64,000 bases of DNA, taken from the NCBI GenBank assembly GCA_938045955.1, contig CALIBK010000105.1, positions 5,187-69,186 of the forward strand, read 5' to 3'. The DNA is from an uncultured bacterium. Lineage in GTDB: Bacteria > Desulfobacterota > BSN033 > UBA1163. The notes beneath the pieces are model-generated. The model saw only the letters and a list, made by a program, of their open reading frames with translations. It made no database searches and was not told where the DNA came from. This document shows, piece by piece, positions 5,909 to 27,980 of this stretch. The position numbers were made by a program, and so were the translations under genes. Each line of letters starts with the position of its first letter. The first letter of the stretch is position 1.

Positions 5909-7078
5909 TTAAAGGGCTCGGCCTGGAACTCCGATGTGTCTGGCAATGACAATCCGTTGAACTTCCGAGGTTCCTTCCCCAATGTCGAGGAGTTTCTGAT
6001 TCCGATAATGGCGCTCCACTGCGTATTCTTTCATCAATCCATACCCCCCATGGAGTTGAACGGCGTGATTGGCTACCCGGTGGTACATCTCAGAGCAAAA
6101 CATTTTTGCCATCGCTGATTCTTTGGAGAAGGGACGATGATTCTCACAGAGCCAGGTCGCCTTATACAGGATCAATCTCCCCAACTCGATCTCTGTAGCC
6201 ATATCTGCCAGTTTAAAGGCGTTAACCTGAAAAGAACCAATAGGCCTTCCGAACTGTTCCCTTTCTTTCGAATATTTAAGAGCTAATTCAAAGGCCCCCT
6301 GAGCTCCTCCCAGAGCCATGGCCGCAATGCTCAATCTCCCACCATCAAGAGTGGCCAGCATCTGCCGAAATCCATCCCCCCGTCTGCCCAGAAGATTCTC
6401 TTTGGGTACTTTGCAATCCTGGAAGTAAAGTTCTCCTGTGTTTGAGGCACGCCAGACCATTTTCCCGTGCATCGTCTTGGTGATAAAACCTGGGGTTCCG
6501 TTTGGAACCAGGATACAGGAGAGCTCATTTCTCCCGTCTTCTCGTTTTCCGGTTACGGCCTGGACCACACACACCTTACTGATGTCCGTGGTGGAATTGG
6601 TGATAAAGATCTTTGAGCCATTGATCACCCAGTAGTCTCCTTCCAGCACGGCAGTCGTCCGGGACGCCCCTGCATCGGAGCCTGCGTTGGGTTCGGTCAA
6701 TCCAAAGGAGGCCAGGGCCTTGCCCGTACAGAGATCAGGAAGCCACTGCTGTTTCTGTTCCTCGTTGCCATAGTAATAGATAGGGGAGATGCCGAGGGAG
6801 TTTCCTGCAGCAAGGGTTGCGGCCTGAGAGCCATCGATCCTTGCAATCTCCTCCACGGCAATGATATAGCTGAGGTAGCCCACATTGCTTCCACCATATT
6901 CTTCTGAAACGAAGGGACCGAAAAGGCCCAGCTCTCCCATCCGCCGGGTCAGATGGTAAGAGAACTCTTCCTTCTCATCCAGCTCCTGGGCCACCGGAGC
7001 AATCTCCTTCTCGGCAAAATTTCTGACCATTTTCCGTAGCATCTGTTGTTCTTCGGTAAGATCAAAATCGAGTGCCAT
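5909..7078 (-). CDS. acyl-CoA dehydrogenase (short/medium-chain, butyryl-CoA dehydrogenase-like)
   Basis: Start chosen at MALDFDLTEEQ (ATG at 7078) with GGAGG RBS; ACAD N-term, catalytic-base motif IGEGTSEVQ near C-terminus. Confidence 0.85.
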   Translation of the reverse strand: MALDFDLTEEQQMLRKMVRNFAEKEIAPVAQELDEKEEFSYHLTRRMGELGLFGPFVSEEYGGSNVGYLSYIIAVEEIARIDGSQAATLAAGNSLGISPIYYYGNEEQKQQWLPDLCTGKALASFGLTEPNAGSDAGASRTTAVLEGDYWVINGSKIFITNSTTDISKVCVVQAVTGKREDGRNELSCILVPNGTPGFITKTMHGKMVWRASNTGELYFQDCKVPKENLLGRRGDGFRQMLATLDGGRLSIAAMALGGAQGAFELALKYSKEREQFGRPIGSFQVNAFKLADMATEIELGRLILYKATWLCENHRPFSKESAMAKMFCSEMYHRVANHAVQLHGGYGLMKEYAVERHYRNQKLLDIGEGTSEVQRIVIARHIGVPGRAL

Positions 7079-7170
7079 AACTAACCTCCAAAAGGGATCG
7101 AGGGGACAAGGATTCAAGGAGTTAGGCTAAACCTTTTCCTCGAACCCTTGAACCCTGAGATCCTTGAATC

Positions 7171-7647
7171 CTATTTAATAGGTCTAAAATATTTGATATC
7201 TAAGATACTTCCCTCTCGTTCCTTTTTATCTTTGAAGACGGCTTCCACAGGCATGCCAAAATAGACATCTTTGAATTCCACCTCTCCGAGCCAGTGGACA
7301 AATCCCCCCTCCGTTCCATCAATTCGAATGACCGCCACAATGGAAGGAACTTCTTTCCTCACTCCATCATAGGTTTCGTAGCATTGGGTGAAGGTATGAA
7401 CCTTTCCTTTTGTCCCGACTTCGAGATAGTTTTCCTCCAGTCTTTCAAAACATTTTTCGCAATAGATTCGGGGAGGAACATAGATGAGGTTACACTGGTT
7501 GCATTTTGCTCCAAAAATCTTCCCGTTAATCATTTCACGAAAGAATTTTTCACCGGCTCTTCCAACCGTATAGATGTAACTCATCGGAATTTGCCCTTCC
7601 CAGTAAGTGACATCCGTCACCTTTTGAAATCTTTCGATCAATGCCAT
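7171..7647 (-). CDS. DUF35 family protein (Zn-ribbon + OB-fold), thiolase-associated
   Basis: 158 aa, CxxC...CxxC (CNQCNLIYVPPRIYCEKC) followed by OB-fold-like segment; GGAGGTG RBS; immediately downstream of SCP-x-type thiolase. Confidence 0.7.
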   Translation of the reverse strand: MALIERFQKVTDVTYWEGQIPMSYIYTVGRAGEKFFREMINGKIFGAKCNQCNLIYVPPRIYCEKCFERLEENYLEVGTKGKVHTFTQCYETYDGVRKEVPSIVAVIRIDGTEGGFVHWLGEVEFKDVYFGMPVEAVFKDKKEREGSILDIKYFRPIK

Positions 7648-7687
7648 ATTCTCACCTCCGTTCGTTAAATTTGAGAAAGGGTATAGA

Positions 7688-8218
7688 TTATTCGACCGGT
7701 TTAAAATATTTGATATCTGTAATCGCTCCGATTCTCTCCTCTGGTGGTTTCCAGACAGCCTTGACTCTCATCCCTCGATAGATCTTCCACGGATCTACCT
7801 CGTTAAGGAGATGAAGGATTCCCATTCCCTTGGTAGCACCATCAATTTCAATCACTGCTGGGGTGAAGGGTCTTACGCCTCCTTTGATATCAAGGCGTCC
7901 AGCTTTCCAATCCACATAACTGATGACCCAGGTATTCACGATCCCGGTATCCTTCACATAAACCCACTCCCCGGTTGGAACCCAGCAGAGTTCACAGAAC
8001 ATCCTTGGAGGAATCAAGATGCGATGACATTTATTACATTTTTTAGCAATAATCCTTCCGTTTTTTAATTCTGCCAGATAGCGTCCCAGTGCTGGTCCAT
8101 TATCCCAGGCATACTTTAAATTGGGTGTCCACTTGACAGAGAGAACTTTTCCTTTCTGTATATCTTCAGCGCTTAATTTTGTTGCGGTTTTAGCTACCAT
8201 TTTATCGGTAATTTCCAT
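7688..8218 (-). CDS. DUF35 family protein (Zn-ribbon + OB-fold), second paralog
   Basis: 176 aa, CNKCHRILIPPRMFCELC zinc ribbon; RBS GGGGAGGTG; adjacent to thiolase. Confidence 0.7.
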   Translation of the reverse strand: MEITDKMVAKTATKLSAEDIQKGKVLSVKWTPNLKYAWDNGPALGRYLAELKNGRIIAKKCNKCHRILIPPRMFCELCWVPTGEWVYVKDTGIVNTWVISYVDWKAGRLDIKGGVRPFTPAVIEIDGATKGMGILHLLNEVDPWKIYRGMRVKAVWKPPEERIGAITDIKYFKPVE

Positions 8219-8233
8219 AATTTCACCTCCCCT

Positions 8234-9391
8234 TTAGCTTCTCATTACAACCACCGTCCCCACCTGCATCAGGTCACCCCATGCCTGGGCCAAACCACAG
8301 GTGGGTTTTCCAGGGACCTGTCTTTTACCCGCCTCCCCGCGGAGCTGTAAAAAGATTTCGATAATCTTCATCAATCCCGTTGCTGATATGGGGTTACCTA
8401 CCCCCAGAGCCCCCCCAGAAGGGCAGGTTGGAAGGTTTCCATCTCTGTTGAAATATCCATCTTTCAACATTTCCACAGATTTTCCTCTCGGCGCCAGGAG
8501 AAGACCTTCGATGTGATGAAGTTCCTTGTAGGTGAAGGGATCATAAGGCTCGGCCACATGGATCTCCTTGGAAGGCTCTTTGATCCCTGCCATCTTGTAG
8601 GCCATCCTTGCAGCGACCTCCACATAGTCGGGATAATAGAGATCTCTTGTACACCAGTAGGCTGTATCAAGACACCAGCCTACTCCATCAATCCAGATGG
8701 GTTTTTCAGTCACTCTTCTTGCCACATGCTCTGCAGCCAGAACAATCGCTGCGGCCCCATCACTCGTTGGGCTAATATCGAGGCGATTCACAGGCCATGC
8801 CATGATTTCGGAATTGAGAACGTCCTGGACGGTAATCTCAGCACCCAGTTGGGCTGAAGGGTGATCCAGGGCATTCCTTTTATTTTTGACTGCGACCAAC
8901 GCAATATCCTCTTTTTTATAACCCCATGTGGTCATAAAACGATTCATTTCAATCGCAAAAATCCAGATCAGAGTAGGGTAAAGAGGTTGTTCGGTGGTGT
9001 GATCAAAGATCGTCAAAAAGGCTCCGGCAGGATGTGGATAGGCGGATGACATTTTCTCTTCAGCCACCACTAAACAGGTATCAAACATTCCCGAGGCTAC
9101 ATGGAACCAACCATGGATCGGAGAGAGGACACCTGTCCCTCCTCCCACAAAGTGTCTCATATAAGGTTTTCGATAGGCACCCGCACCATCTGCAAGATAC
9201 TCTCCTTTCATATGCACTCCATCAAAGGCATCGGGTGCTGTACCCATCACTACACAATCAATATCTGAGAGTTTCATTTCACAGGAATCAAGGGCCATCC
9301 TGGCAGCTTCGTAAGCCAATTCTTTAGGCGTTTCCTGAGCATTACGATAAAATTTAGTCAATCCAGCTCCGACGATTGCTACTCTTCTCAT
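8234..9391 (-). CDS. thiolase-like protein, SCP-x / nonspecific lipid-transfer-protein-type (DUF35-partnered)
   Basis: 385 aa, N-term MRRVAIVGAGLTKF, thiolase fold with C-terminal GGALGVGNPISATG; strong RBS. Confidence 0.8.
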   Translation of the reverse strand: MRRVAIVGAGLTKFYRNAQETPKELAYEAARMALDSCEMKLSDIDCVVMGTAPDAFDGVHMKGEYLADGAGAYRKPYMRHFVGGGTGVLSPIHGWFHVASGMFDTCLVVAEEKMSSAYPHPAGAFLTIFDHTTEQPLYPTLIWIFAIEMNRFMTTWGYKKEDIALVAVKNKRNALDHPSAQLGAEITVQDVLNSEIMAWPVNRLDISPTSDGAAAIVLAAEHVARRVTEKPIWIDGVGWCLDTAYWCTRDLYYPDYVEVAARMAYKMAGIKEPSKEIHVAEPYDPFTYKELHHIEGLLLAPRGKSVEMLKDGYFNRDGNLPTCPSGGALGVGNPISATGLMKIIEIFLQLRGEAGKRQVPGKPTCGLAQAWGDLMQVGTVVVMRS

Positions 9392-9409
9392 TTTCTCTCA
9401 CCTCCTTCT

Positions 9410-10558
9410 TTAATTACTCAATATCACCACAGTTCCTGTAGCGGTGGGTATCCCTCTCCAGCTTTGGGCAAGTCCGGTGGTGACATTCTTGATTTGATTC
9501 TTCCCTGCTTCTCCTCTCAACTGCCGCACGACCTCAAGGACTTTAAGTCCTCCGTTCAATTCATAGAGATTCCCCACTCCCAGACAACCTCCAGAGGGGT
9601 TGACTGGAAATTCTCCATTAATCTCGGTACCACCCATTGCGGTAAAGGCTCCTGCTTCTCCTTTTCTAAAGATCCTCATGGCTTCGAGGTGTTGAAGTTC
9701 TTTATAGGAGAACTCATCATTGACTTCTGCAAAGTCAATCTCCTTTCGAGGATATCGAATTCCTGCCATCTTATAGGCCATCTCTGCGGCTATCTGAGCG
9801 TAGACGGCCTCTCCCCAATTTCGGGTTTCAAGTCCGGGAGTATCGGAGCACCATCCGATGCCTCTTATCCAGATGGGCTTATCAGTAAGGGCTTTCGCGG
9901 TTTCCTCTTCCGCGAGAACCACAACCACAGCTCCATCTGAATGAGGGGCAATATCCATCTGAGTGAGTGGGTAAGAAACGACTTCAGAGTTCAGGACATA
10001 GTCGATATCCACAAGAACCCCATGGCCTGCATAGGGGTTTGTCAGAGCATTTCTTCTATTTTTTACCACCACTTGAGCAATCTGCTCTCTTGTGGTACCG
10101 GTTTCATACATAAATCTTGCCATCTCTAACCCTGCCACTGCATGAGGACTTTCCTTCAATGGTCTATTATAAATTGGATCCATTGCAAATGTGACCATTT
10201 CGGAGAGAGTAAGCATATTGGAGGCTTTACTGAGGCCCTGGACTACCGAGATGGGACCGATCCCTGAGAGAATCATCATATAGGCTGATGCCAGGGAATG
10301 GATAAAGTCTCCAGGTACGGTATAGATGGGTTTAAGCACTGCCCCTAACTGATCCGGAGAATACTCATCGGCGATGCTGTATCCCTCAAAAAAATCCTCG
10401 GCAGTGCTGACAAAAGAATCCACATCCTTAGGTTCGATGCCTGCATCCAGATAGGCCTTCATTGCCGCTTCATAGGTCAACTCGCGATAGGACACATCAG
10501 GAGTCGTTGCCCGAAATCCTGTGGTTCCTATTCCAACAATAGCCACTCGTTTAGTCAT
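9410..10558 (-). CDS. thiolase-like protein, SCP-x type, second paralog
   Basis: 382 aa, MTKRVAIVGIGTTGF..., C-terminal GGCLGVGNLYELNG; RBS GAAAGGAGGG. Confidence 0.8.
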   Translation of the reverse strand: MTKRVAIVGIGTTGFRATTPDVSYRELTYEAAMKAYLDAGIEPKDVDSFVSTAEDFFEGYSIADEYSPDQLGAVLKPIYTVPGDFIHSLASAYMMILSGIGPISVVQGLSKASNMLTLSEMVTFAMDPIYNRPLKESPHAVAGLEMARFMYETGTTREQIAQVVVKNRRNALTNPYAGHGVLVDIDYVLNSEVVSYPLTQMDIAPHSDGAVVVVLAEEETAKALTDKPIWIRGIGWCSDTPGLETRNWGEAVYAQIAAEMAYKMAGIRYPRKEIDFAEVNDEFSYKELQHLEAMRIFRKGEAGAFTAMGGTEINGEFPVNPSGGCLGVGNLYELNGGLKVLEVVRQLRGEAGKNQIKNVTTGLAQSWRGIPTATGTVVILSN

Positions 10559-10782: not shown

Positions 10783-11190
10783 TTACTTCCGTGGTTTAAT
10801 ATTTTCTTTGACCCATCGGACGGCTTCCTCGATGGGGGTTCCCGGGGTGAAGATGGCTTTCACGCCTGCCTGTTGGAGGGAAGGGATATCTTCTTCCGGG
10901 ATGATTCCACCTCCGAAGACGATGATATCTTCGGCTCCTTTTTCTTTGAGCAGTCGGATGACTTCCGGGAAGACGTAGTCATGAGCGCCAGAGAGGATAG
11001 ACAGTCCGATGGCGTCCACGTCTTCCTGGATGGCTGCGTTGACGATCTGTTCCGGGGTCTGGTGGAGTCCGGTGTAGATGACCTCGAAGCCTGCGTCCCG
11101 GAACCCTCGGGCGATGACTTTCGCCCCCCGGTCGTGTCCATCGAGTCCGGGTTTTCCGATAAGGATTCGAATTTTTCGTTCCGTGCTCAT
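10783..11190 (-). CDS. B12-binding small subunit of a split methylmalonyl-CoA-mutase-family acyl-CoA mutase (isobutyryl-CoA mutase small-subunit-like)
   Basis: 135 aa; cobalamin-binding DxHxxG motif ([11 protein letters not shown]), Rossmann-like B12 domain. Confidence 0.85.
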
Positions 11191-11220
11191 GGTCTCTCCT
11201 CGGGTTAAGGATTCAGGGAT

Positions 11221-12894
11221 TTAGAAGTATCCCGGGTCGGTGTATCTTCCGAAGACTTCCCTCCAGACGTCACAGATCTCCTGGATGGTGGCATACTCCC
11301 GGACGGCATTGATGATGTAGGGCATCAGGTTTTCTCCACTGATCGAGGCCCGTCGGATCTCTTCGAGGCACTGTTTGACCTTTTCGTTGTTTCGGGTTCT
11401 TTTGACTTCCTTAAGTCTTCTCAGTTGTCTTTCTTCGATTTCCGGTCTCATTCTCCAGATGGGGATAGGGGGGTGGTCGGTGACGTATTTATTTACTCCT
11501 ACGATGACCTTTTCGCCTGAGTCCACCTGTTTCTGGAATCGGTAGGCGGCCTCTGCGATCTCCATCTGGGGGTATCCCCGTTCGATCGCTTTGATCATTC
11601 CTCCCATCTCGTCGATCTTTCGGATGTATTCCCAGGCCTTCTCTTCGATCTCATTGGTGAGGGCTTCGACGAAGTAGGAGCCTGCGAGGGGGTCGATGGT
11701 ATTGGTGACTCCGGTCTCTTCGGCGAGGATCTGCTGGGTTCTCAGGGCGATCGTGACCGCTTCTTCTGTGGGGATGGCGTAGGTTTCATCGAGGGAGTTG
11801 GTGTGAAGCGACTGGGTTCCTCCGAGCACCGCGGCCAGGGCCTCGTAGGCAGTCCGGATGATGTTGTTGTAGGGTTGCTGGGCGGTGAGGGAGCATCCTG
11901 CGGTCTGGGTGTGGAAGCGGAGCATCCAGGATCTTGGGTTTTTGGCCAGAAAGCGTTCTCTCATGATCTTGGCCCACATTCTTCGGGCGGCTCGGAACTT
12001 AGCGATCTCTTCGAAGAAGTCGATGTGGGAGTCGAAGAAGAAGGAGAGTCTTGGGGCGAATTCATCGACATCGAGGCCTCGTTCCATGGCTGCTTCCACG
12101 TAGGCGATGCCATCGGCCAGGGTGAAGGCCAGTTCCTGGACGGCTGTGGCTCCTGCCTCACGGATATGGTAACCGCTGATGCTGATGGTATTCCATCGGG
12201 GGACTTCCCGGGTGCAGTATTCGATGGTATCGACGATGATTCGAAGGGAGGGTTTGGGTGGGAGCATGAAGGTCTTCTGGGCGATGAACTCTTTGAGCAT
12301 GTCGTTCTGAATCGTCCCTCCGATCTGTCTCTTGCTCACCCCCTGTTTTTCGGCGACGACGATATACATGGCGAGCAGGATAGAGGCAGGGGGATTGATG
12401 GTCATCGAGGTGGTTACTCGATCGAGGGGGATTCCTTCGAAGAGAATCTCCATATCTTTCAGGGTATCGACGGCAACCCCGCACTTTCCGACCTCTCCCC
12501 GGGCCATGGGGGAGTCACTGTCGTATCCCATCAGGGTCGGGTAATGGAAGGCGATGGAGAGCCCTGTCTCTCCGTGGTCGAGGAGGTAGTGGAAGCGTTT
12601 GTTGGTCTCTTCAGGTCCTCCGAGTCCTGAGAACATCCTCATCGTCCAGAGTCTTCCCCGATACATGGAGGGCTGGACTCCCCGGGTAAAGGGATAGATC
12701 CCTGGAAAGCCGATATCTCTCGAATAGTCCAGATCTTTGATATCCTCAGGAGTGTAGAGGGGTTTGATCTCGAGATCGGAGACGGTGGTGAATCGGGGAA
12801 GTCGCTCAGGTCTCTCACAGAGGGTCTTAGAGAGTTCTTCGTTCCATTTCTTCTTCTCCTCTTTGACCTTTTGGATCTGCTCCTCCTTAAACAT
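11221..12894 (-). CDS. acyl-CoA mutase large (substrate-binding TIM-barrel) subunit, isobutyryl-CoA-mutase-like
   Basis: 557 aa; conserved MCM-family blocks ([24 protein letters not shown]; [18 protein letters not shown]; [15 protein letters not shown]). Positions equivalent to MCM Tyr89/Arg207 read Phe/Gln by eye alignment. Confidence 0.85.
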
Positions 12895-12953
12895 ATCGTA
12901 TCACTCCTTGTGACGCTCTGGATATAACGCCAGAGCACCTTATTTGCTTATTT

Positions 12954-13478
12954 TTAGATTTCGATCCCTTCTCGGGACTGGATCCCTTTTTGATAGTAGT
13001 GTTTTCTTTCGACCATCTCCGTGACCAGATCGGCTTTTTCGAGGATCTCCGGTTTTGCGTATCTTCCCGTGAGGATGAGCTCCACGGATTCGGGTTTGGA
13101 TTCCATGAGCTCAAGAACTTCTTTGAGGGGAATCAGGCCGTAGTCCACCGCCACATTGATCTCGTCCAGGATGACGATATCATAGGCTTTGCTACGGATG
13201 GCTTCTCTGGCAAGTTCGAATCCTTTTCGGGCCAGTTCCGTATCGATCGGATCGGGATTCGTTCTGGAGACGAAGGTCTCTCTGCCCATCTGGTTGATTG
13301 TGAGGTGAGGGGAGAGCCTTTTTGAGGCCTCGAGTTCTCCGTACTGGATGTTTCCCTTCATGAACTGGATCATCAGGACTTTGAGGCCGTGGCCCGCTGC
13401 TCGAAGGGCGAGGCCCAGGGCAGCGGTTGTCTTTCCCTTTCCATCTCCTGTATAGACCTGAATGAGACCTTTTTTCAT
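12954..13478 (-). CDS. cob(I)alamin adenosyltransferase (CobA/CobO/BtuR type)
   Basis: 174 aa; P-loop-like GLIQVYTGDGKGKTTAALGLALRAAGHG characteristic of CobA-type ATP:corrinoid adenosyltransferase; sits directly upstream of the mutase genes. Confidence 0.8.
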   Translation of the reverse strand: MKKGLIQVYTGDGKGKTTAALGLALRAAGHGLKVLMIQFMKGNIQYGELEASKRLSPHLTINQMGRETFVSRTNPDPIDTELARKGFELAREAIRSKAYDIVILDEINVAVDYGLIPLKEVLELMESKPESVELILTGRYAKPEILEKADLVTEMVERKHYYQKGIQSREGIEI

Positions 13479-13485
13479 AAGATTC

Positions 13486-15420
13486 TTAACTCAGCTCTCT
13501 GATCTGGGCGATGATCTGTTCGGTTTTGAAGTGTCTCAGGCTGATGGCGCTTGAGGGGCAGGTGGCGTTACAGGCCCCGCATCCTTTGCAGAGGGCTTCG
13601 TTGACACTCATCACCTTTCGATAGGGATCGAGTCTGAGGGCACGGTATTCGCAGATCTGTTCACAGAGGCCACAGCCTGCACAGACGAGTTCATCCACGT
13701 GGGCGGTGATCGGTTCGATCTTTACCTTTCCTGCAAAAAGCGGGACCGTAGCCCTCGAGGCTGCCCCGTGAGCCTGTGAGAGGGTATCCTGGATATCCTT
13801 GGGTCCCTGACAGGTGCCGGCGAGAAAGATCCCATCGGTTGCGGTATCGAGGGGTCTCAGTTTTGGATGGGCCTCGAGGTAGAAACGATCGGGTCCCTGA
13901 GAGAGTTTAAGGAGGCTTCTCAGTCCGTCGGAGTCAGCCCTCTGGGTAAGGCCTGTGGCGAGCACCACCAGATCAGCTTCCTCTTCATAGGGTTCTCCGA
14001 GGAGTTCGTCATCGGCTCGGATGAGAAGCTTTCCATTTCTCTGGATGATCTCGGAAGGGACCCCTTTTCGATAGAGAATCCCCTTCTTCTGGACCTGTTC
14101 GTAAAACTGTTCGTATCCCTTTCCAAAGGCTCTTACATCGATATAACAGATCGTGATCCTCGCTTCTGGAAGAAGTTCTTTGGCGAGGAAGGCCTGCTTG
14201 GCCGTAAACATGCAGCACACCCTTGAGCAGTATTCATTATTGACTGTCTTATCCCGTGAGCCCACACACTGGATAAAGAAGATCCTTTCGGGTTCTTTTC
14301 CGTCGATGAGGAGTCTTCCTTTCGTGGGTCCTTCGGGGGAGAGAAGCCTTTCGAACTCAAGGGCGGTAAGGACATTTGGATAGAGGCCGTAGCCCAATTC
14401 GGGTTTCTTTTTTGGATCGAAGGGGTCATAACCCGTGGCTACAATGATGGTCCCGATGGGGATGTCGATCTCCATCCCCACCTCCTCGAACTGAACCGCT
14501 CCTTCCGGGCAGACCTCCCGGCATCGAGTGCATTCTCCTTTTCGAAGATAGAGGCAGTGTTCGGGATCGATTAGGTAACTCAATGGAAAGGCATAAGGAG
14601 AGGGCAGATAGATGGCCTTTCTGCGGTCAAGGCCCATGTTCCATTCGTTGGGAATTTCAACCGGGCAGACCTTCTCACACTCTGCGCATCGATTACACTT
14701 CAGGGGATCCACGAAGCGGGGATACTTTCTGAGCTTTACTTTGAAGTTCCCTACGAATCCCTCCACTCCCGTCACCTCACAGAGCGTTAAAACGTGAAGA
14801 GAAGGGTATTGCTTGAGTGTCTCGATTCTGGACCTCAGGATTTCTGAGGTCTCCTCAAGGTTGGGGAAGGTTCGTGAGATCTGGGTGAGATGACCACCGA
14901 TCGACGGAGCCTTCTCCACGAGATAGACCTCGAAACCCGATGAAGCGATATCCAGAGAGGCCTGAATACCCGCGATTCCGGCTCCGATGATGAGGACAGA
15001 GGGAGTCACAGGGGCCTCTTTCTCCTCAAGGGGTTCGTGAAGGGAGACCCTGGCCACTGCCGAGGCTACAAGCTCCATTGCCTTCCGGGTTGCCTCATCA
15101 CGATCCTGATGGACCCAGGAGCACTGCTCCCGGATGTTTGCCATTTCGAAGAAATAAGGATTGAGTCCGGCTGAGCGAATCGCATTTCGATAAGTGGGCT
15201 CATGCATCCGTGGAGAACAAGCCGCAACCACAATCCGGTCGAGGCCAAGGGCTTTGATATCATTCTTGATAAGATCCTGACCTGGATCGGAACACATGTA
15301 CTGATAATGACGGGCCACCTCCACATGGGGAAGGGTCATCGCAAAGGCTCTTACTCGTTCCACATCTACTGTGGCCGCTATATTGATCCCGCAATGACAG
15401 ATATAAACACCGATCTTCAT
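13486..15420 (-). CDS. hdrA: heterodisulfide reductase subunit A-like flavoprotein (HdrA)
   Basis: 644 aa; N-terminal Cys-rich HdrA block (GVYICHCGINIA...YMCSDPGQ...VVAACSPRMHE...REQCSWVH), FAD motif IIGAGIAGIQASLD, two 2x[4Fe-4S] ferredoxin-like inserts (CNRCAECEKVCP / CTRCREVCP; CAGCGLCEQICE / CKGCGACNATCP). Confidence 0.85.
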   Translation of the reverse strand: MKIGVYICHCGINIAATVDVERVRAFAMTLPHVEVARHYQYMCSDPGQDLIKNDIKALGLDRIVVAACSPRMHEPTYRNAIRSAGLNPYFFEMANIREQCSWVHQDRDEATRKAMELVASAVARVSLHEPLEEKEAPVTPSVLIIGAGIAGIQASLDIASSGFEVYLVEKAPSIGGHLTQISRTFPNLEETSEILRSRIETLKQYPSLHVLTLCEVTGVEGFVGNFKVKLRKYPRFVDPLKCNRCAECEKVCPVEIPNEWNMGLDRRKAIYLPSPYAFPLSYLIDPEHCLYLRKGECTRCREVCPEGAVQFEEVGMEIDIPIGTIIVATGYDPFDPKKKPELGYGLYPNVLTALEFERLLSPEGPTKGRLLIDGKEPERIFFIQCVGSRDKTVNNEYCSRVCCMFTAKQAFLAKELLPEARITICYIDVRAFGKGYEQFYEQVQKKGILYRKGVPSEIIQRNGKLLIRADDELLGEPYEEEADLVVLATGLTQRADSDGLRSLLKLSQGPDRFYLEAHPKLRPLDTATDGIFLAGTCQGPKDIQDTLSQAHGAASRATVPLFAGKVKIEPITAHVDELVCAGCGLCEQICEYRALRLDPYRKVMSVNEALCKGCGACNATCPSSAISLRHFKTEQIIAQIRELS

Positions 15421-15454
15421 CCACAGCCTCTCGCAACGCGCACGGTGCTAAGCG

Positions 15455-17698
15455 TTACTTTGAACCCCTCATTTTCCCTCTCGCAAGGAGGGTGCAGGCA
15501 AGAGCGGCTGCTCCGCTTGCCTGAGCCACCGTGTCCGGGATATCTTTCGGACCCTGACAGCAGCCGGCAAGAAAGATCCCCTCGACCGATGTTCTTATGG
15601 GGTCATGCCCCGGGGCCTCTGCAAAAAAACCCTCATCGGAATTCTCGAGACGAAGAATCTTTCCCAGCCACTCGCTCTCCTTTCGAGGAACGAGCCCTGA
15701 AGCGAGGACCACCAGATCTGCCTCGAGTTCGAAGGGCTCCCCAAGAAGGGTATCCTCCCCTCTGACTATGAGCTTCCCATCCCTTCGGTAGATCTCCGAG
15801 GGATTGGCCCTTCGATAGACGATATGCTCCTTCTGGACCCTCTCGTAGAACTCTTCGAATCCCTTTCCGAATGCCCTCACATCCATATATAAAACAGTAA
15901 TCCGAGCATCCGGAATCTTATCCCTCAAGAGATGAGCCTGCTTGGCCGTATACATACAACAGACCCTGGAACAGTATTCATTACCAACCGTCTTATCCCT
16001 CGATCCCACACAGTGGATAAAGACCACCTCTTTCGGTTTCTTTCCGTCGATCAGAATCTCTCCCCTGGTGGGTCCTGAGGCGGAGCATAGCCTCTCCATC
16101 TCGAGCCCATGGAGCACATTCGGATAGAGGCCGTATCCAAACTCGGGTTTCTTCTTCGGGTCAAAGGGATCAAAACCCGTGGCAAGGATAATGGCTCCAA
16201 CATGAAGCTCCACAATCTCTTCCTTCATCTCATAGTTAATGGCTCTGGGCTGGCAGTATCTCGCACACTCCCCGCAGTCCGAGCAGCCTCCACAGCTGAG
16301 ACACCTCCTGGCCTCCTCCATCGCCTCCTCTGCGCTGAGACCCGGGCCCATGGGTCTCACCATATCCGGAAGGGATTCCCGCTTATCCCTCTCCTTCTCA
16401 GGAAGCTCGCTCCGGATGGGAGAGGGTTTTTCTCTTTCAGGCTCTCTATCTTCATGGAGGTCATGACCCCTGAGGTAGCGATCGATAGAGCGAGCAGCCT
16501 TCCTTCCCTGAGCCATCGCCTCAACGATACTTCCAGGCCCCCTCACCGCATCCCCTCCAGCAAAGACCCCCTCAAGATTTGTCTGAAGTGTCACAGGATC
16601 AACCTCGATCATCCCCCTCCGATCCCTCTTCAAATCCCTGAGAGCTTTTGAGAGAGGCTCCACTCCATTTGATCCCACACCCAAAAAGATTGCCCCGTAA
16701 GAGGCTCGAATCTCCTCGAAGGAGAGATCCTTCCCTACCTCTGTATGGAGTCGAACCTCGATTCCCATCCTTTCGATGAGAGAGAGGTCTCTGCGGACAA
16801 TTTCTCGCGGAAGACGATAGGAAGGAAACCCATGGGTGAGGAGTCCTCCCAGCTCTTCCATGGATTCAAAGATCGTGACCCGATAACCCATCCTCCGAAG
16901 ATCGAAGGCCGAAACCAGCCCCGAAGGCCCTCCACCCACAATGGCGACTCTTTGAGGTCTCTCTTCGGGGAGTTCAAACTGAAACTCCGGCTCCTCCACA
17001 TGATCCACAAGAAACCTCTTCAGATCGCAGATCCTCACCGGGCGATCCACATCGATCCGCTTGCACTGCCGCTCACAGGGATGACTGCAAACATAGGCCA
17101 GGATCCCGGGGAAGGGAAGGGCTTTTCGAACCAGACTCAGAGCCTCTCGGAACTTCCCATGAGAGATTAATGCTACATATCCCTGAGCATTACAGCCGAG
17201 AGGACAGGCCGCCCGACAGGGAGGGATTCCACGTCGATCAATCGTATACTTCAAGGGAACGGCCTGAGGAAATGGAATATAGATGGCCTTCCTCATCCCG
17301 AGGCCCATATCAAACTCATTGGGAAGGGTGACAGGACACTGAGCCACACAATCCGCACAGGCCGTACATTTGTTAATATCCACGTAGCGGGGCTTCTTAC
17401 GAACCTTGACTCTAAAATCTCCCGCCCTTCCTTCGATGGAGATGATCTCTGAGTAGGTGAGCAGATTGATATTGGGATGATTGGCTGTATCCACCATCTT
17501 GGGGGTGATGATACAGGCCGAACAGTCAAGGGTGGGGAAGGTCTTATCCAGTTGGGCCATGTGACCACCGATTGAAGGCTCCTTCTCGACCAGATGGACG
17601 AGAAACCCCTTGTCTGCAATATCGAGAGCAGCCTGCATCCCGGCTATGCCCCCACCTATGACCAGAGCCTCGGGAATCGTTCTCTCTTCAAAATTCAT
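15455..17698 (-). CDS. HdrL-type large HdrA-like flavoprotein with inserted NAD(P)H-binding (GltD/NfnB-like) domain
   Basis: 747 aa; HdrA-like FAD motif VIGGGIAGMQAALD at N-term and HdrA-like C-terminal half (CVGSRD...CSRVCCMY...FLAGCCQGP). Inserted region has ferredoxin Cys motifs and a second Rossmann motif VAIVGGGPSGL...GGDAVRG. Confidence 0.8.
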   Translation of the reverse strand: MNFEERTIPEALVIGGGIAGMQAALDIADKGFLVHLVEKEPSIGGHMAQLDKTFPTLDCSACIITPKMVDTANHPNINLLTYSEIISIEGRAGDFRVKVRKKPRYVDINKCTACADCVAQCPVTLPNEFDMGLGMRKAIYIPFPQAVPLKYTIDRRGIPPCRAACPLGCNAQGYVALISHGKFREALSLVRKALPFPGILAYVCSHPCERQCKRIDVDRPVRICDLKRFLVDHVEEPEFQFELPEERPQRVAIVGGGPSGLVSAFDLRRMGYRVTIFESMEELGGLLTHGFPSYRLPREIVRRDLSLIERMGIEVRLHTEVGKDLSFEEIRASYGAIFLGVGSNGVEPLSKALRDLKRDRRGMIEVDPVTLQTNLEGVFAGGDAVRGPGSIVEAMAQGRKAARSIDRYLRGHDLHEDREPEREKPSPIRSELPEKERDKRESLPDMVRPMGPGLSAEEAMEEARRCLSCGGCSDCGECARYCQPRAINYEMKEEIVELHVGAIILATGFDPFDPKKKPEFGYGLYPNVLHGLEMERLCSASGPTRGEILIDGKKPKEVVFIHCVGSRDKTVGNEYCSRVCCMYTAKQAHLLRDKIPDARITVLYMDVRAFGKGFEEFYERVQKEHIVYRRANPSEIYRRDGKLIVRGEDTLLGEPFELEADLVVLASGLVPRKESEWLGKILRLENSDEGFFAEAPGHDPIRTSVEGIFLAGCCQGPKDIPDTVAQASGAAALACTLLARGKMRGSK

Positions 17699-17707
17699 GG
17701 GTTAAAT

Positions 17708-18862
17708 TTATTTCAGTTTTCCTATCAGTGCGGAGGCGATGGTATTTTTCTGGATCTCTTTGGTCCCTTCGTAGATCTCCATGATCTTGGCATCCCGATA
17801 GAATCGCTCCACTTCGTACTCCGTAATATACCCGTAGCCTCCAAAGATCTGGATCGCCTCATCAGCGACCTCCACTGCCACCTTCGCCGAAAACATCTTC
17901 GCCATCGAGGTGAGCTTCGGATCAATCCCTTTATGATCAAAGTTCCAGGCCGCTTTATAGGTGAGAAGCCTTGCCGTCTCCACCTTGGTTGCCATATCGG
18001 CAAGCTTGTGCTGGGTGATCTGAAACTCCACGAGCTTCCTGCCGAACTGCTCCCTCTGGCGGGCATAATCGAGAGCCCGATCGAAGGCCCCCTGGGCAAT
18101 CCCGAGGGCCTGGGCCGCGATCTCAATCCGACTTTCGTCAAAGAACTCGAGAACCTGGTAAAACCCCTTCTTCTCTTCCCCGATCAGGTTGCTCACAGGA
18201 ACCCTCACATCACTGAAGGAGAGCTCTGCCGTAGAGGTCATCCGAATCCCCATCTTCGGAGTAATCTCCGAGACCTCAAGACCCTTTACCCCCTTCTCCA
18301 CCAGAATCGTACACTGACCCCGATAGGTAGGTCTCGCCTGAGGATCGGTTTGACAGAGAACCACAAAGAAATCGGCCAGAGAACCATTGGTGATAAAGGT
18401 CTTTGTCCCATTGATCACGAAGAAGTCTCCCTCCCTCACAGCAGTCGTTGACATCAGCGTGATATCACTTCCATGATTGGGTTCTGTATAGGCCCCACCC
18501 GAGATAGACTCGCCGCGGGTTATCGGAGGAAGATACCTCTTCTTCTGCTCCTCAGAACCAAAGCGAAGAATCACCTCCGAGGAGAAGTCCGTAAGGCTGA
18601 GGGCGACTCCCACCCCCGAGTCCTTCCGACAGAACTCCTCCACGATCAGGATATTCTCCATCACTCCATATCCCTGTCCCCCATAATCCTCAGGGAAATG
18701 GATCCCTATGAATCCGAGCTTTGCTGCCTTTTTCCATATCTCAAAGGGAAAGGCATGCTCCTTCTCCCACCGGAGGATCTTCTCCTTATCATACTCCCCT
18801 TCCATAAACTCACGGGCTGCCTTCTGAATATCCCTCTGCTCCTCGGTCAACTCAAAGTCCAT
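17708..18862 (-). CDS. acyl-CoA dehydrogenase (butyryl-CoA dehydrogenase-like)
   Basis: 384 aa; ACAD fold, catalytic motif IYEGTKEIQ; RBS GGAGGAGG; immediately upstream of hdrL and downstream of etfAB. Confidence 0.85.
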   Translation of the reverse strand: MDFELTEEQRDIQKAAREFMEGEYDKEKILRWEKEHAFPFEIWKKAAKLGFIGIHFPEDYGGQGYGVMENILIVEEFCRKDSGVGVALSLTDFSSEVILRFGSEEQKKRYLPPITRGESISGGAYTEPNHGSDITLMSTTAVREGDFFVINGTKTFITNGSLADFFVVLCQTDPQARPTYRGQCTILVEKGVKGLEVSEITPKMGIRMTSTAELSFSDVRVPVSNLIGEEKKGFYQVLEFFDESRIEIAAQALGIAQGAFDRALDYARQREQFGRKLVEFQITQHKLADMATKVETARLLTYKAAWNFDHKGIDPKLTSMAKMFSAKVAVEVADEAIQIFGGYGYITEYEVERFYRDAKIMEIYEGTKEIQKNTIASALIGKLK

Positions 18863-18880
18863 GAATCCTCCTCCGAACCT

Positions 18881-19858
18881 CTATTTTTTCATCTCTTTGA
18901 TCTTATCCTTGATGACCGGGACGATCTTGAAGAGATCGCCCACGATCCCGTAATGGGCGACGCTGAAGATCGGGGCCTTTGGATCCTTATTGATCGCAAT
19001 GATCGTCCCCGAACCCTTCATCCCTGCCACATGCTGAAAGGCACCGCTGATCCCGATGGCAATATAGACCTTGGGCTTTACGGTCTTTCCCGACGTCCCC
19101 ACCTGACAGGACTTGGGAAGCCACTTCTTATCCACCACAGGCCTTGAACAGGCCAGAGCCCCTCCAATCGAGTCCGCGAACTCCTTGACCAGAGGGATGT
19201 TTTCTGCGTCCTTGATCCCCCTTCCTACAGCAACCAGAATATCGGCCTGCGTGATATCGACCTCTCCCACCGAAGCCTCGACATACTCAATAAATCGCCT
19301 TCCCAGAACCTCATCACTGAGAGGGGAGGAGGTTGTGACAATCTCCCCCTCAATGGGCTTCTTCTCTTCCACCGAAAAGGCTCCCGATCGAAGAGTCACA
19401 AGATAAGGAGCCTTCCGAACAAAGGAGACCTCTGCATTGATCTTCCCTCCATAGATCTGACGGATAAGAGTAAAAGAATCATCTTTTGGTTCTATTCCGA
19501 TACAGTCGGTCGCAAGTGGCCAACCGAGCCTGATTGCTAAGGCAGGGACAAAATCCATTCCCTGAGCCGTGTGGCCGATTAGCGTAAGAAAGGGCTTTTT
19601 CTCTGAAAGAAACTGAAAGAGAACCCTCTCATAGGTCTCCGAATTGTAGAACTCGAGTCGATCGTCTTCGATGAGATAGACCCGATGGGCTTTTGATCGA
19701 AGGGCCTCTGCAAAAGGCTTTACGCCTTTTCCTAAAAGAACGACCGAAAGAGTCCCTTCCATAGCCTCGGCAAGCGATCTTCCCTTCGAGAGCATCTCCC
19801 AGGTGATATCCCTCAACTCCCCTCGACGATGTTCAGCGACCACCATGATCTCTTTCAT
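18881..19858 (-). CDS. etfA: electron transfer flavoprotein alpha subunit (EtfA)
   Basis: 325 aa; ETF-alpha FAD-binding C-terminal domain (PKVYIAIGISGAFQHVAGMKGSGTIIAINKDP...); start overlaps etfB stop (ATGA). Confidence 0.85.
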   Translation of the reverse strand: MKEIMVVAEHRRGELRDITWEMLSKGRSLAEAMEGTLSVVLLGKGVKPFAEALRSKAHRVYLIEDDRLEFYNSETYERVLFQFLSEKKPFLTLIGHTAQGMDFVPALAIRLGWPLATDCIGIEPKDDSFTLIRQIYGGKINAEVSFVRKAPYLVTLRSGAFSVEEKKPIEGEIVTTSSPLSDEVLGRRFIEYVEASVGEVDITQADILVAVGRGIKDAENIPLVKEFADSIGGALACSRPVVDKKWLPKSCQVGTSGKTVKPKVYIAIGISGAFQHVAGMKGSGTIIAINKDPKAPIFSVAHYGIVGDLFKIVPVIKDKIKEMKK

Positions 19859-20649
19859 CAGACAAGCCCTCCTTTATCCTTCAGAATCTCAAAGACCTTC
19901 GCTGCGACCTCCTCAGGTTTCCCCTCAAGTATCTGAGCCCCCTCCCCAACCAGAGGGAGAAAGAGCCTCTCAAGCCCGATATCCGAACCCTTAAGCCCAA
20001 CCTCCTCCTCTTTAAGCCCGAGATCAGAAAGCCCCCAAACCTTGATCTCCTTCTTTGCGACCTTCCGGATCCCCATAATCGAGACATACCGGGGCTCATT
20101 GATCCCTGTCTGAATGGTAAGAAGTGCTGGAAGCTTAACCTCCACCACCTCCTCCAATCCTCCCTCAAGCTCCCGATGAGCCCTGATCTTCCCATCCTCC
20201 ATTTCAACTCGGGTTACAATTGCCACATGAGAAAGACCGAGGAGCCTGGCGACCATCACCCCCACCTCTCCAAACCCATCATCCTCAGCCTGTGTTCCGG
20301 TAAGAATCAAATCATAAGGAAGCCTGCGGATTGCCTGTGCAAGAACCTTTGCTGTCGCAAACCCATCAGAACCCGAAAAGGCAGGATCCGTAAGCCGGAT
20401 CGCCTCATCCGCTCCCATGGCCAGACACTTCCTTAAAGACTCATTCGTATCCTCCCCTCCCATGGAGAGAACCGTCACCGTCCCCCCGAACCTCTCCTTG
20501 AGAAGAATCGCCTCCTCGATGGCATAACTGTCCCACTCATTGAGATCAAAGGCCAGTCCCGTCTTCTCAATATCTCGGCCCGATCGATCAATCGCAAGAT
20601 CCGCATCCGCCGTGTCCGGAACCCTCTTGATACAGACAATGATATTCAT
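19858..20649 (-). CDS. etfB: electron transfer flavoprotein beta subunit (EtfB)
   Basis: ORF track starts at a TTG (20655); the ATG at 20649 giving MNIIVCIKRVPDT matches the canonical ETF-beta N-terminus and has GAGGAGG RBS. Confidence 0.85.
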   Translation of the reverse strand: MNIIVCIKRVPDTADADLAIDRSGRDIEKTGLAFDLNEWDSYAIEEAILLKERFGGTVTVLSMGGEDTNESLRKCLAMGADEAIRLTDPAFSGSDGFATAKVLAQAIRRLPYDLILTGTQAEDDGFGEVGVMVARLLGLSHVAIVTRVEMEDGKIRAHRELEGGLEEVVEVKLPALLTIQTGINEPRYVSIMGIRKVAKKEIKVWGLSDLGLKEEEVGLKGSDIGLERLFLPLVGEGAQILEGKPEEVAAKVFEILKDKGGLV

Positions 20650-20668
20650 CACCAAGACCTCCTCTTTA

Positions 20669-23173
20669 TTATGAAATCTTCCCCCTCTTCGTTTCGATTC
20701 TTACCCACTTCGGCTCCCTTTCAGGATCCAAAGGGTGTGGAGAATAGAGTAAAAGAACCCCGGGCGATGGATTCCTTGAGAGATGAACCATAAACTCCAT
20801 CTCCCCTCCATCCGATGATAAAACCTTAACCCAATCCCCCTCCTCAATCCCGAGACTCCGGGCCTCCTCAGGGTTCATCTCCAAAACAGGTCTCTCCATG
20901 ACCTTTCGGAGATGCTCACTCCTCAGGCTCAAACTCCCCGACTGAAAGAGTGAAGGCCTCTCGATCAAGACATAAGGATATCCTTCAGGAGGAGCCTTCG
21001 TCTCAGGAGGAGAAAGAGGAACCAATCTTCGGAAAGGAAAATCCTCGATGGAGAGAAACCTCGCCCCTCGAGGCCACTGCCTCCCATCCTCAATCCCCTG
21101 ATAATACGAAACCTCCCTTTTTATCCCCTCCAGTACCTCAGATGGAGTCTCCCCCGGAAGAGAGACCTCAAAACGTTTCAGAAGATCCCGAAAGATCTCA
21201 AAGTCTGAACGAGACTGCCCCAGGGAAGCCCTGATGGGATGAAGTCCCTGAACCCTCCGCTCAAGACTCGTATAACTGCCCTCCTTCTCAACAAAAGAAG
21301 AGACCGGAAGCACGAGATCCGCCCTCTCAAGAAGGGCATTTGCGAAGAGATCCTGGACCACCAGAAACTCAAGCCCCTCCAATGAAGAAATGGGCCTTTC
21401 TCCAACCGCATAAAGCCCCTTGATCTGACCTCGAGAGATCTTCGATTCCATCTCCCGAAGACCCCCTCGAAGAAAAGGAATCTTCATATCCATTAATCCC
21501 TGAGTATTGCACCTCTCTAAAAGAAGAAGAATCCCCGTAGCCTCCCTTCCCAGATGCCCGGTGAGAAGAGCGAGATTCCCACAGAGAGTTCCTATCTGCC
21601 GGGCATAGGAATAAGACCACGAACCTGGACAGATAAGAATCATCGCACTTTTCGCCCGGGAAAGGCTCCTTACCGCCTCCCCGAGCAACTCCCTTGACTC
21701 AGGAGAAAGCCCGTTAAGAATTCTCAGATACTCATCCTTCCTCTCAAAAAGAGTCTCAAACCCTTCTGTATGATTATGAATAAACCCTACGTCCTGAAGC
21801 CCTTCCTCAAGAATCAAACCCACCATCCCGACGAGCAGTCTTACCTCCTCTCCTGGTCTGGAGGAGAGAAAGATCGAAGGAGGCTGAAGAGGGGAGAGCC
21901 GGGTCTTCTCACTAAGGGCAATGTCATAGCTTCCAAGGACAATAAGACGGGCACGATTCCTGCGAATCGCAAGATGCATCTCATTCTTCACAATCGGATG
22001 GGTCAGGGAAGGATCTCCCCCTACCACCAAAACCACATCCGAGCCACGAATCTCACCGATAGAGTTTGTCGAAACTCCATAACCTAAGACCTCAGAAAGT
22101 CCGTCCGAAAGACCAAAACCCGAAACCCCTCCATCCAGAACAATCTCACCAGTCCCTAATGTCTCAACAAAAAGCTTCCTGAAAAGATAATACTCCTCAT
22201 TGGTCAAACGAGAAGAGAGAAGAACTCCAATCCCTTCAGCTCCATGGCGCTCGCTAATCGATTCAAGACGGTGATAAACTACCCCCAAGGCCTCCTCCCA
22301 GGAGACCTCCCTGAGACTCCCATTGACCCTGAGAAGAGGGGATCTGAGCCTTTGAGAGGAATTCACAAAATCCCAGCCAAAACGACCCTTCACACAGAGA
22401 TTCCCATCATTGGAGCCTAAAAGAGGATCCGAATAAACCCTCTTAATCTCCCCTCCCTTGGAAGCGATCGTCAACAAACAGCCACAACCACAATAAGGAC
22501 AGGGAGTCGTCGTCTCCAGACACTCCCAGAGCTTCGTCCCATAATCAAAACACTCCGACGTAATGGCCCCAACCGGACAGGTATCCAGACACTGACCACA
22601 GAACTCACACCGAAGAGGACGATGGAAATCCGTATCAATCACACACCGAATCCCCCGACGGGTGAAAGAGAGCTCCCCAACCCCCTGAACCTCCTCACAG
22701 ATCCTCACACATCGACCACAAAGAATACACTTATTCCCATCCCGAAAAAGAAGTGGGGAGGAATCATCCACCGGATATCTGATCGGCTCCCAGGGATACT
22801 GAGTCTCCTGTAGACCATACTCATAGAGGAGCCTCTGAAGCTCACACTCCCCCTCCCTCTCACACCTCGGACAGATCATTGGATGATTAAGAAGAATGAG
22901 TTGAAGCTGAAGCCTGCGAGCATCCAGAACCCTCGGGGAATGAGTATAAACCTCCATCCCATCCCCTACAGGTGTAAAACAGGAAGGAAGAAGCTCAGAA
23001 CCCCCCTTTACCTCCACCACACAGAGCCGACAGGCCCCAAAAGGCAGAAGCCTCCTATCATCACAGAGAGTCGGAATCCGAATACCCACTGAACGGGCCA
23101 CCTCAAGAATCGTCCGACCCCTCTTTGCCTCCACCTCCATCCCGTCAATTATGAGCTTAATGCTCCCGGCCAT
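20669..23173 (-). CDS. NuoG-like 75-kDa-type subunit: N-terminal [2Fe-2S]/[4Fe-4S] ferredoxin domains fused to a molybdopterin-oxidoreductase-like domain (formate-dehydrogenase-alpha fold, apparently without catalytic Cys/Sec)
   Basis: 834 aa; N-term IKLIIDGMEVEAKRGRTILE...TLCDD..GACRLC (2Fe-2S), CxxCxxxC motifs, then MopB-like block DVVLVVGGDPSLTHPIV. Region aligning to the FDH Sec/Cys (CARVUHG) reads LDGGVSGFG, by eye only. Confidence 0.7.
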   Translation of the reverse strand: MAGSIKLIIDGMEVEAKRGRTILEVARSVGIRIPTLCDDRRLLPFGACRLCVVEVKGGSELLPSCFTPVGDGMEVYTHSPRVLDARRLQLQLILLNHPMICPRCEREGECELQRLLYEYGLQETQYPWEPIRYPVDDSSPLLFRDGNKCILCGRCVRICEEVQGVGELSFTRRGIRCVIDTDFHRPLRCEFCGQCLDTCPVGAITSECFDYGTKLWECLETTTPCPYCGCGCLLTIASKGGEIKRVYSDPLLGSNDGNLCVKGRFGWDFVNSSQRLRSPLLRVNGSLREVSWEEALGVVYHRLESISERHGAEGIGVLLSSRLTNEEYYLFRKLFVETLGTGEIVLDGGVSGFGLSDGLSEVLGYGVSTNSIGEIRGSDVVLVVGGDPSLTHPIVKNEMHLAIRRNRARLIVLGSYDIALSEKTRLSPLQPPSIFLSSRPGEEVRLLVGMVGLILEEGLQDVGFIHNHTEGFETLFERKDEYLRILNGLSPESRELLGEAVRSLSRAKSAMILICPGSWSYSYARQIGTLCGNLALLTGHLGREATGILLLLERCNTQGLMDMKIPFLRGGLREMESKISRGQIKGLYAVGERPISSLEGLEFLVVQDLFANALLERADLVLPVSSFVEKEGSYTSLERRVQGLHPIRASLGQSRSDFEIFRDLLKRFEVSLPGETPSEVLEGIKREVSYYQGIEDGRQWPRGARFLSIEDFPFRRLVPLSPPETKAPPEGYPYVLIERPSLFQSGSLSLRSEHLRKVMERPVLEMNPEEARSLGIEEGDWVKVLSSDGGEMEFMVHLSRNPSPGVLLLYSPHPLDPEREPKWVRIETKRGKIS

Positions 23174-23179
23174 CTCCTC

Positions 23180-25030: not shown

Positions 25031-25033
25031 CTC

Positions 25034-27872: not shown

Positions 27873-27980
27873 CTTTTTATTCAAAAGGGTCCGAGGATGC
27901 AAGGGTCAATGGATTCAAGTAGCAGCACCCTATAGAGATTTTTCTCTTGACCCCCTGGAGCCTCGACTCCTTAACCCCTT

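Follow-up and report, generated by a model that had tools for sequence, protein, structure and literature searches.

Isobutyrate, a product of valine, is commonly formed as an intermediate when proteins are degraded anaerobically, and physiological work has shown since about 1990 that it can be isomerised to butyrate in a B12-dependent manner (Matthies and Schink 1992, cited in PMC5017805). No report of a strict-anaerobe enzyme purified from a defined gene was found in the literature. The isobutyryl-CoA mutase (ICM) of Streptomyces supplies polyketide precursors, a physiological setting other than that of the locus described here (PMC2847961). Syntrophothermus lipocalidus TGB-C1 degrades isobutyrate via isomerisation to butyrate, and Narihiro et al. 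(2016) assigned its genes Slip_0757-0760 as an ICM, a prediction from physiology and genomics; they also noted a kinship of these genes with a group found in sulfate reducers (PMC5017805). Similar predicted cassettes occur in Syntrophomonas and in metagenome-assembled genomes of Syntrophomonadaceae (PMC6687939, PMC8674449). Here we describe a three-gene cluster encoding the large and small subunits of a B12-dependent acyl-CoA mutase and a corrinoid adenosyltransferase, located in a stretch of 64,000 nucleotides (the window) from an uncultured member of the Desulfobacterota (assembly GCA_938045955.1, contig CALIBK010000105.1, positions 5,187 to 69,186).

The cluster probably encodes a heteromeric adenosylcobalamin (AdoCbl)-dependent isobutyryl-CoA/n-butyryl-CoA mutase (EC 5.4.99.13-type) of an anaerobe clade, which has its own CobA and would feed beta-oxidation. 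It is a further member of the anaerobe-type ICM kind already predicted by comparative genomics. An earlier note on this DNA, made from its letters alone, had described three consecutive minus-strand open reading frames at 10783-13478, and their coordinates proved exact:

10783-11190, minus strand: mutase small subunit (MutS), 135 amino acids (aa), B12-binding; PF02310 91 bits, TIGR00640 (acid_CoA_mut_C) 182 bits against a cutoff of 57
11221-12894, minus strand: mutase large subunit (MutL), 557 aa; PF01642 779 bits over the full profile (E 3e-234), TIGR00641 836 bits
12954-13478, minus strand: CobA/CobO/BtuR adenosyltransferase, 174 aa; PF02572 229 bits, TIGR00708 180.5 bits against a cutoff of 167.75

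The profile scores of the three proteins are too high for chance, and all three are full length when compared with hundreds of homologs. A PF01642 large subunit accompanied by a separate B12 subunit of about 135 aa with a DxHxxG motif (D17-G-H19-D-R-G22) is the split ICM architecture. MutL scored below the cutoff on both the methylmalonyl-CoA mutase (MCM) equivalog profile NF006944 (674 bits, cutoff 876) and the IcmF profile NF045497 (366 bits, cutoff 1500). The top solved-structure relatives of the small subunit were HcmB (4r3u_C) and 2yxb with 145 bits each. The third protein is a CobA-type adenosyltransferase by its PF02572 fold, its P-loop (GDGKGKTT at residue 11) and its score above the TIGR00708 equivalog cutoff.

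Intergenic gaps are 7 bp between an HdrA-like gene and cobA, 59 bp between cobA and the large subunit gene, 30 bp between the two mutase genes and 224 bp between the small subunit gene and the next gene. For comparison, 80 related genome loci were collected and every mutase large subunit was extracted from them; about 35 of these have the CobA gene immediately upstream of the mutase. CobA presumably makes or repairs AdoCbl for the mutase. An Rfam scan of the whole window gave no match to a cobalamin riboswitch or other RNA family at gathering thresholds, and a promoter and terminator scan of the 5-20 kb region found fewer sites than in shuffled controls.

Active site and relatives of the large subunit

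The large subunit was compared by phmmer with all PDB sequences, and its active-site region aligned without gaps at about 50% identity. The matches included HcmA (4R3U, 579 bits), human MCM (530 bits) and MutB of Propionibacterium (1REQ, 511 bits), and the structures 5REQ and 2XIJ were also aligned. SEQRES numbering was offset from that of the literature by exactly one, as checked at Tyr89, Arg207, Gln197, Tyr243 and His244. In MCM the residues Tyr89 and Arg207 bind the substrate carboxylate, and the Phe/Gln pair found in their place, which amounts to a loss of these ligands, is a hallmark of ICM. The by-eye alignment in the earlier note had set RMF88SGLG over RQY89AGF of MutB and FIAQ206KTF over MVR207NTY. 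Both placements were reproduced when phmmer aligned the protein without gaps to 1REQ chain A, so that Tyr89 and Arg207 are not retained and Phe88 and Gln206 stand in their columns. A Phe in the column of Phe88 is also seen in 5REQ, the deposited Y89F mutant. Because the two carboxylate ligands are replaced, the pocket would be expected to take an uncharged alkyl group. The catalytic residues are kept, namely Gln196, Tyr242, His243, His328, Gln330 and Asn366, corresponding to MutB Gln197, Tyr243, His244, His328, Gln330 and Asn366. The columns of HcmA Ile90, Asp117 and Gln208 are occupied in the window enzyme by Phe88, Ala115 and Gln206.

The signature is shared throughout the close relatives. 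Phe and Gln were both present in 80/80 primary homologs from the related loci (66-91% identity), within the motifs R[MQ]F[SA]G[LMF]G and KEF[IAVT]AQKT[FLW], as well as in 120/120 of the nearest database cluster representatives and in about 123/125 homologs of the Syntrophomonadaceae branch. Six loci (L001, L007, L009, L010, L076 and L077) contain a second large/small mutase pair, 60-68% identical to the first, in which the motifs read RQYAGFA and KEYAARGTY and both Tyr and Arg are kept. The Tyr/Arg pair of L007 follows MeaB and a carboxyltransferase and precedes a glyoxalase-family epimerase, and this module (L007:15806-21170) is a methylmalonyl-CoA pathway. The Phe/Gln pair of the same locus is only a few genes away, with ACAD (acyl-CoA dehydrogenase), ETF (electron-transferring flavoprotein) and CobA genes as neighbours. 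Two paralogs in one genome with unlike signatures and unlike pathway neighbours argue strongly against the Phe/Gln enzyme being an MCM. The replacement noticed earlier is thus real and invariant in the clade, in contrast to the co-resident Tyr/Arg paralogs of the methylmalonyl modules. In the window, the place of the methylmalonyl-CoA module is taken by a GNAT gene and AddAB-like nuclease/helicase genes, and no second mutase was found there by tblastn with the mutase and its neighbours.

With a presumed fragment of Streptomyces cinnamonensis IcmA as the query, 566-aa Streptomyces proteins 97% identical to it were found, and the sources of some give their name as isobutyryl-CoA mutase large subunit. 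These IcmA orthologs carry Phe and Gln in RQFAGFG and KEYIAQKEW, aligned to Phe88 and Gln206 of the window enzyme. A neighbour-joining tree with bootstrap was built from the Streptomyces sequences, the loci, three sequences from the PDB and 150 representative proteins from clusters at 50% identity. The window clade fell in an all-Phe/Gln group, beside Streptomyces IcmA and near HcmA. The window clade itself had a bootstrap of 96% including the Syntrophomonadaceae sequences and 88% when two RQFAGFG outliers were included. The cluster representatives also comprised numerous strongly divergent mutase-like proteins whose active-site motifs could not be recognised. One representative, P0288 (913 aa), is a Phe/Gln-type fusion of large subunit, B12 domain and MeaB, an order unlike that of IcmF, and the longer P0312 may be a similar fusion.

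The link to S. lipocalidus was established through a Syntrophomonadaceae member of the related loci (L079), which as a query retrieved an S. lipocalidus protein whose 90% cluster holds ADI01538.1/WP_013174940.1 (DSM 12680, the same strain as TGB-C1). In the complete genome CP002048.1 the gene for ADI01538.1 lies in a four-gene cluster of CobA, large subunit, small subunit and MeaB, a content that matches Slip_0757-0760. Identities between the window and S. lipocalidus proteins were 66% for the large subunit, 64% for the small subunit and 60% for CobA.

Genomic context and proposed role

The mutase genes belong to a long minus-strand series that includes the following beta-oxidation genes:

5909-7117, minus strand: acyl-CoA dehydrogenase (ACAD1), identified by Pfam and synteny
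17708-18862, minus strand: short-chain acyl-CoA dehydrogenase (ACAD2, Bcd/AcrC-like) in the same gene string, with Pfam ACAD domains and an AcrC-like best NCBIfam match
18881-19858, minus strand: EtfA (PF01012, PF00766)
19858-20655, minus strand: EtfB (PF01012, PF00766)
26727-27902, minus strand: acyl-CoA dehydrogenase (ACAD3), identified by Pfam
27981-28832, minus strand: 3-hydroxybutyryl-CoA dehydrogenase (Hbd), NF004474 476 bits against a cutoff of 408
28866-30044, minus strand: acetoacetyl-CoA-type thiolase, TIGR01930 459 bits against a cutoff of 240.55

From high to low coordinates the order is thiolase, Hbd, ACAD, an HdrD-like CCG protein, NuoE-, NuoF- and NuoG/formate-dehydrogenase-like proteins, EtfB, EtfA, ACAD, two HdrA-like proteins, CobA, MutL and MutS, followed by two thiolase-like proteins, two DUF35 proteins, an ACAD and a GNAT protein. 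The rest of the window encodes a Liv-type ABC transporter accompanied by an acyl-CoA ligase, together with additional ligases, TRAP transporters and a molybdenum hydroxylase. The beta-oxidation surroundings proposed in the earlier note therefore hold, with three ACADs, EtfAB, Hbd and the acetoacetyl-CoA-type thiolase all in the window. Across the 80 related loci an ACAD flanks the mutase pair nearly always, often together with thiolases, Hbd, ETF and crotonase, and L005-L011, L016, L017 and L022 all keep EtfAB upstream of the mutase. The equivalent of ACAD1 follows the mutase pair in related loci either directly or past a thiolase-like/DUF35 insert. In strain NaphS2 the order is thiolase, thiolase, enoyl-CoA hydratase, ACAD, MutL, MutS, MeaB, regulator and ACAD.

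By analogy with the acyl-CoA mutase family, His19 of the small subunit would bind AdoCbl in the base-off/His-on form, and homolysis of the Co-C bond would yield a 5'-deoxyadenosyl radical that takes a hydrogen from the acyl group in the TIM barrel of the large subunit, whereupon the thioester carbonyl would move to the adjacent carbon. From the gene context we infer the substrate and the direction of flux, in that valine- or isobutyrate-derived isobutyryl-CoA would be linearised to butyryl-CoA, which the neighbouring Bcd-type ACAD with EtfAB, the 3-hydroxybutyryl-CoA dehydrogenase and the acetoacetyl-CoA thiolase would convert to two acetyl-CoA. The C4-type Hbd and thiolase fit butyryl-CoA as the product entering beta-oxidation. 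Among the roles suggested in the earlier note, the interconversion of isobutyrate and butyrate as in syntrophs is favoured by these C4-type neighbours and by the orthology to the predicted ICM cluster of S. lipocalidus.

Two HdrA-like flavo-iron-sulfur proteins are encoded between ACAD/EtfAB and cobA, within a minus-strand region (13486-26661) that has the Nuo/formate-dehydrogenase-like and HdrD-like genes upstream. All or nearly all of the order ACAD-HdrD-EtfBA-ACAD-HdrA-HdrA-CobA-mutase is seen again in L005-L010, L016, L017 and L022, and the Hdr/Etf/ACAD string may serve a syntroph-like organism as an electron-confurcating module when acyl-CoA is oxidised. The formate-dehydrogenase/Nuo-like genes at 20001-26000 show a strand asymmetry of unusual strength, with a GC skew of -0.24 to -0.40 and an AT skew of +0.12 to +0.26, with flanks at about -0.1.

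On the other side of the mutase, two minus-strand thiolase-fold paralogs (9410-10558 and 8234-9391) are 40% identical to each other, and in alignments to solved thiolases the column of the nucleophile Cys holds Gly and the His of the GHP motif is replaced by Asn. Two DUF35 proteins (ChsH2 OB/Zn-ribbon) come next. The whole block (7171-10558, minus strand) is found only in the closest loci, at 87-92% identity, inserted between the mutase and ACAD1. One could speculate that it forms an Ltp2/ChsH2-like retro-aldolase for a tertiary 3-hydroxyacyl-CoA.

Further away, at 48758-57647 on the minus strand, lies a three-subunit molybdenum hydroxylase of the xanthine dehydrogenase family, closest to 4-hydroxybenzoyl-CoA reductase though scoring below the cutoffs (TIGR03194 777 against 994). 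Its neighbours are TRAP/TAXI transporters, an IclR regulator and an AMP ligase of the aryl-acid type, and this region may be an aromatic-acid module.

Alternative substrates

Several observations weigh against an ICM. The window large subunit is 50% identical to the Streptomyces IcmA ortholog over its full length, and the grouping of the window clade with Streptomyces IcmA had a neighbour-joining bootstrap of only 21%. Core identity was highest to a co-resident Tyr/Arg split mutase (71%), followed by IcmA (61%), HcmA (58%) and MutB (52%). Given the low bootstrap and the higher core identity to a Tyr/Arg mutase, the Phe/Gln signature could be convergent. Beside the signature the clade has its own residues Met87, Ser89, Leu91, Thr208 and Phe209, the corresponding residues of IcmA being Gln, Ala, Phe, Glu and Trp. 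In addition, His117 (AFHYPT) replaces the Asp of the AFD[LMF]PT motif; this Asp is present in nearly all of more than 140 other aligned members, very divergent cluster representatives included. Residue 117 is His, or once Gln, in 120/120 of the closest homologs, and the same holds for loci L001-L013, L021 and L024. A literature search on human MCM D139N, made for the role of the replaced Asp, found nothing. As judged from these residues, the flanking substitutions and His117 could shift chain-length or branch specificity. In S. lipocalidus, too, the ICM assignment was predicted from the genome, the literature yielded no assay reported for any clade member, and no enoyl-CoA hydratase was found in the window. 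A MeaB chaperone is likewise absent from the window, with no PF03308 match in open reading frames of at least 130 aa and an empty tblastn search with two MeaB proteins. The earlier note had remarked on this absence, and the remark stands for the window and fails as a family trait, MeaB being present in 46 of the 80 related loci. MeaB directly follows MutS in L063, L071, L079 and L083, and in the closest relatives it sits beside the Tyr/Arg mutase a few genes downstream. That the window lacks it is a matter of how genes are arranged locally, not a feature of the enzyme family.

It is unlikely that the enzyme is a mutase for another uncharged acyl-CoA and so belongs to a distinct specificity class and not to ICM. 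Candidate substrates would be 2-methylbutyryl-/valeryl-CoA, longer 2-methyl-branched acyl-CoAs, or pivalyl-/isovaleryl-CoA as for a pivalyl-CoA mutase. The last of these is disfavoured by the Phe retained at the signature position, where a smaller residue (F598A in IcmF) reportedly favours pivalyl-CoA activity. The modest identity to IcmA, the weakly supported deep branching, and the clade-specific changes beside the signature and at the otherwise conserved Asp118 position are all consistent with a different uncharged substrate, and the several ACADs together with the thiolase-like/DUF35 block of the closest loci suggest branched ones. Against this stand the C4 type of the adjacent Hbd and thiolase and the lack of methylcrotonyl-CoA carboxylase genes in the vicinity, and the orthologous cluster was assigned as ICM by Narihiro et al. 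in a known isobutyrate isomeriser.

A related and quite unlikely explanation is that the Phe/Gln clade, which spans Thermodesulfobacteriota, Syntrophomonadaceae and Dehalococcoidia, evolved independently from split MCMs as a class with its own substrate range, for example interconverting 2-methyl-branched acyl-CoAs of C5 and above with straight-chain ones. The window subclade may then have been tuned by its unique Asp-to-His change at residue 117, and the mutase may work with the adjacent Cys-less thiolase-like and DUF35 proteins in a multi-branch pathway for branched-chain fatty acids.

A mutase interconverting 2-hydroxyisobutyryl-CoA and 3-hydroxybutyryl-CoA, like HcmAB or RcmAB, known from degraders of fuel oxygenates and from the acetone pathway in Desulfococcus biacutus and Desulfosarcina cetonica, is very unlikely. 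HcmAB was the top solved match for both subunits (579 and 145 bits) and shares Gln at the Arg207 position. The HcmA residues Ile90 and Asp117, both of which reportedly have roles in that enzyme, are nevertheless replaced by Phe88 and Ala115. Val is said to occupy the HcmA-117 position in the RcmAB type (Kyrpidia tusciae, D. biacutus), and the window enzyme has Ala115, not Val, in this column. A protein with the motifs RQIAGYG and TAVFD (P0251), presumed to be RcmA-like by these motifs only, was far from the window clade in the tree. The window also has no thiamine-diphosphate enzyme, short-chain dehydrogenase/reductase, 2-hydroxyisobutyrate-CoA ligase or MeaH/MeaB, the companions of such mutases. 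Desulfobacterota are known to use a mutase of the 2-hydroxyisobutyryl-CoA type, which speaks for this substrate (PMC7888143). An acetone pathway of the D. biacutus type was considered separately and rejected on the missing thiamine-diphosphate enzyme, short-chain dehydrogenase/reductase and MeaB, the D. biacutus mutase having been described as RcmAB-like (PMC7176365).

A carboxylated substrate, whether methylmalonyl-, ethylmalonyl- or, as in anaerobic alkane degradation, (1-methylalkyl)succinyl-CoA, would agree with the database label of the family as methylmalonyl-CoA mutase and with the frequency of the clade in hydrocarbon-associated Desulfobacterota including strain NaphS2, and can be dismissed as extremely improbable with both carboxylate ligands (Tyr89 and Arg207) replaced, a score beneath the MCM equivalog cutoff, and Tyr/Arg paralogs coexisting in the methylmalonyl modules of related genomes. 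Alkane degradation, which the earlier note had offered as one option, is a weak proposal, the window lacking both glycyl-radical (alkylsuccinate synthase-type) genes and the carboxylate-binding Arg/Tyr. An alkylsuccinyl-CoA mutase was rejected on the same grounds, as its substrate has a free carboxylate. Searches of the 80 loci by tblastn with window and L063 proteins returned only beta-oxidation-type neighbours, glycyl-radical genes not being among those screened for.

Significance and comparison with known mutases

The candidate gene set for an isobutyryl-CoA/n-butyryl-CoA mutase is a very widespread one, highly conserved in Thermodesulfobacteriota (87-97% identity in the 120 closest cluster representatives) and there built into a string of ACAD, ETF, HdrA and formate-dehydrogenase-like genes. 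Database names for these proteins are generic or read methylmalonyl-CoA mutase. Under the latter name propionate metabolism would be mis-assigned in metabolic reconstructions and the B12 dependency of branched-chain fatty-acid turnover would be hidden. The practical gain is a simple residue rule, checked against co-resident paralogs, by which generic MCM annotations can be corrected.

IcmA/IcmB of S. cinnamonensis, compared via the Streptomyces orthologs P0121 and P0140, is likewise split into subunits of about 560 aa and 135 aa. It shares with the window enzyme the Phe/Gln pair, Ala at the HcmA Asp117 position and identical catalytic residues, and differs around the signature, with RQFAGFG and KEYIAQKEW against RMFSGLG and KEFIAQKTF. 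IcmF (4XC6) catalyses the same reaction as proposed here and carries the Phe/Gln signature. Unlike the split window enzyme it is a fused ICM-MeaB protein of about 1100 aa with a G-protein domain, and its match in the PDB was weak and partial (286 bits). HcmAB of Aquincola tertiaricarbonis (4R3U), the top solved match for both subunits, is also split and has Gln at the Arg207 position. HcmA differs in having Ile90 and Asp117 where the window enzyme has Phe88 and Ala115, and it reads ISEAG and HCQTAAAT where the window enzyme reads IREAG and HTQTAGCS.

The split (archaeal/thermophile-type) MCM paralogs, such as L007:18547-20692, resemble the window enzyme in their split architecture and often occur in the same locus, at 60-68% full-length identity and 67-71% core identity (two paralogs compared). 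They differ in retaining Tyr and Arg and in sitting with MeaB, carboxyltransferase and epimerase genes. The predicted ICM of S. lipocalidus lies in the same 96%-bootstrap clade as the window enzyme, with the same cobA-large-small order and the motifs RMFSG.G and KEFIAQKT. in common. Its cluster differs in ending with MeaB and in not being embedded among beta-oxidation genes, and its large subunit has Asp (AFDFPT) where the window enzyme has His (AFHYPT).

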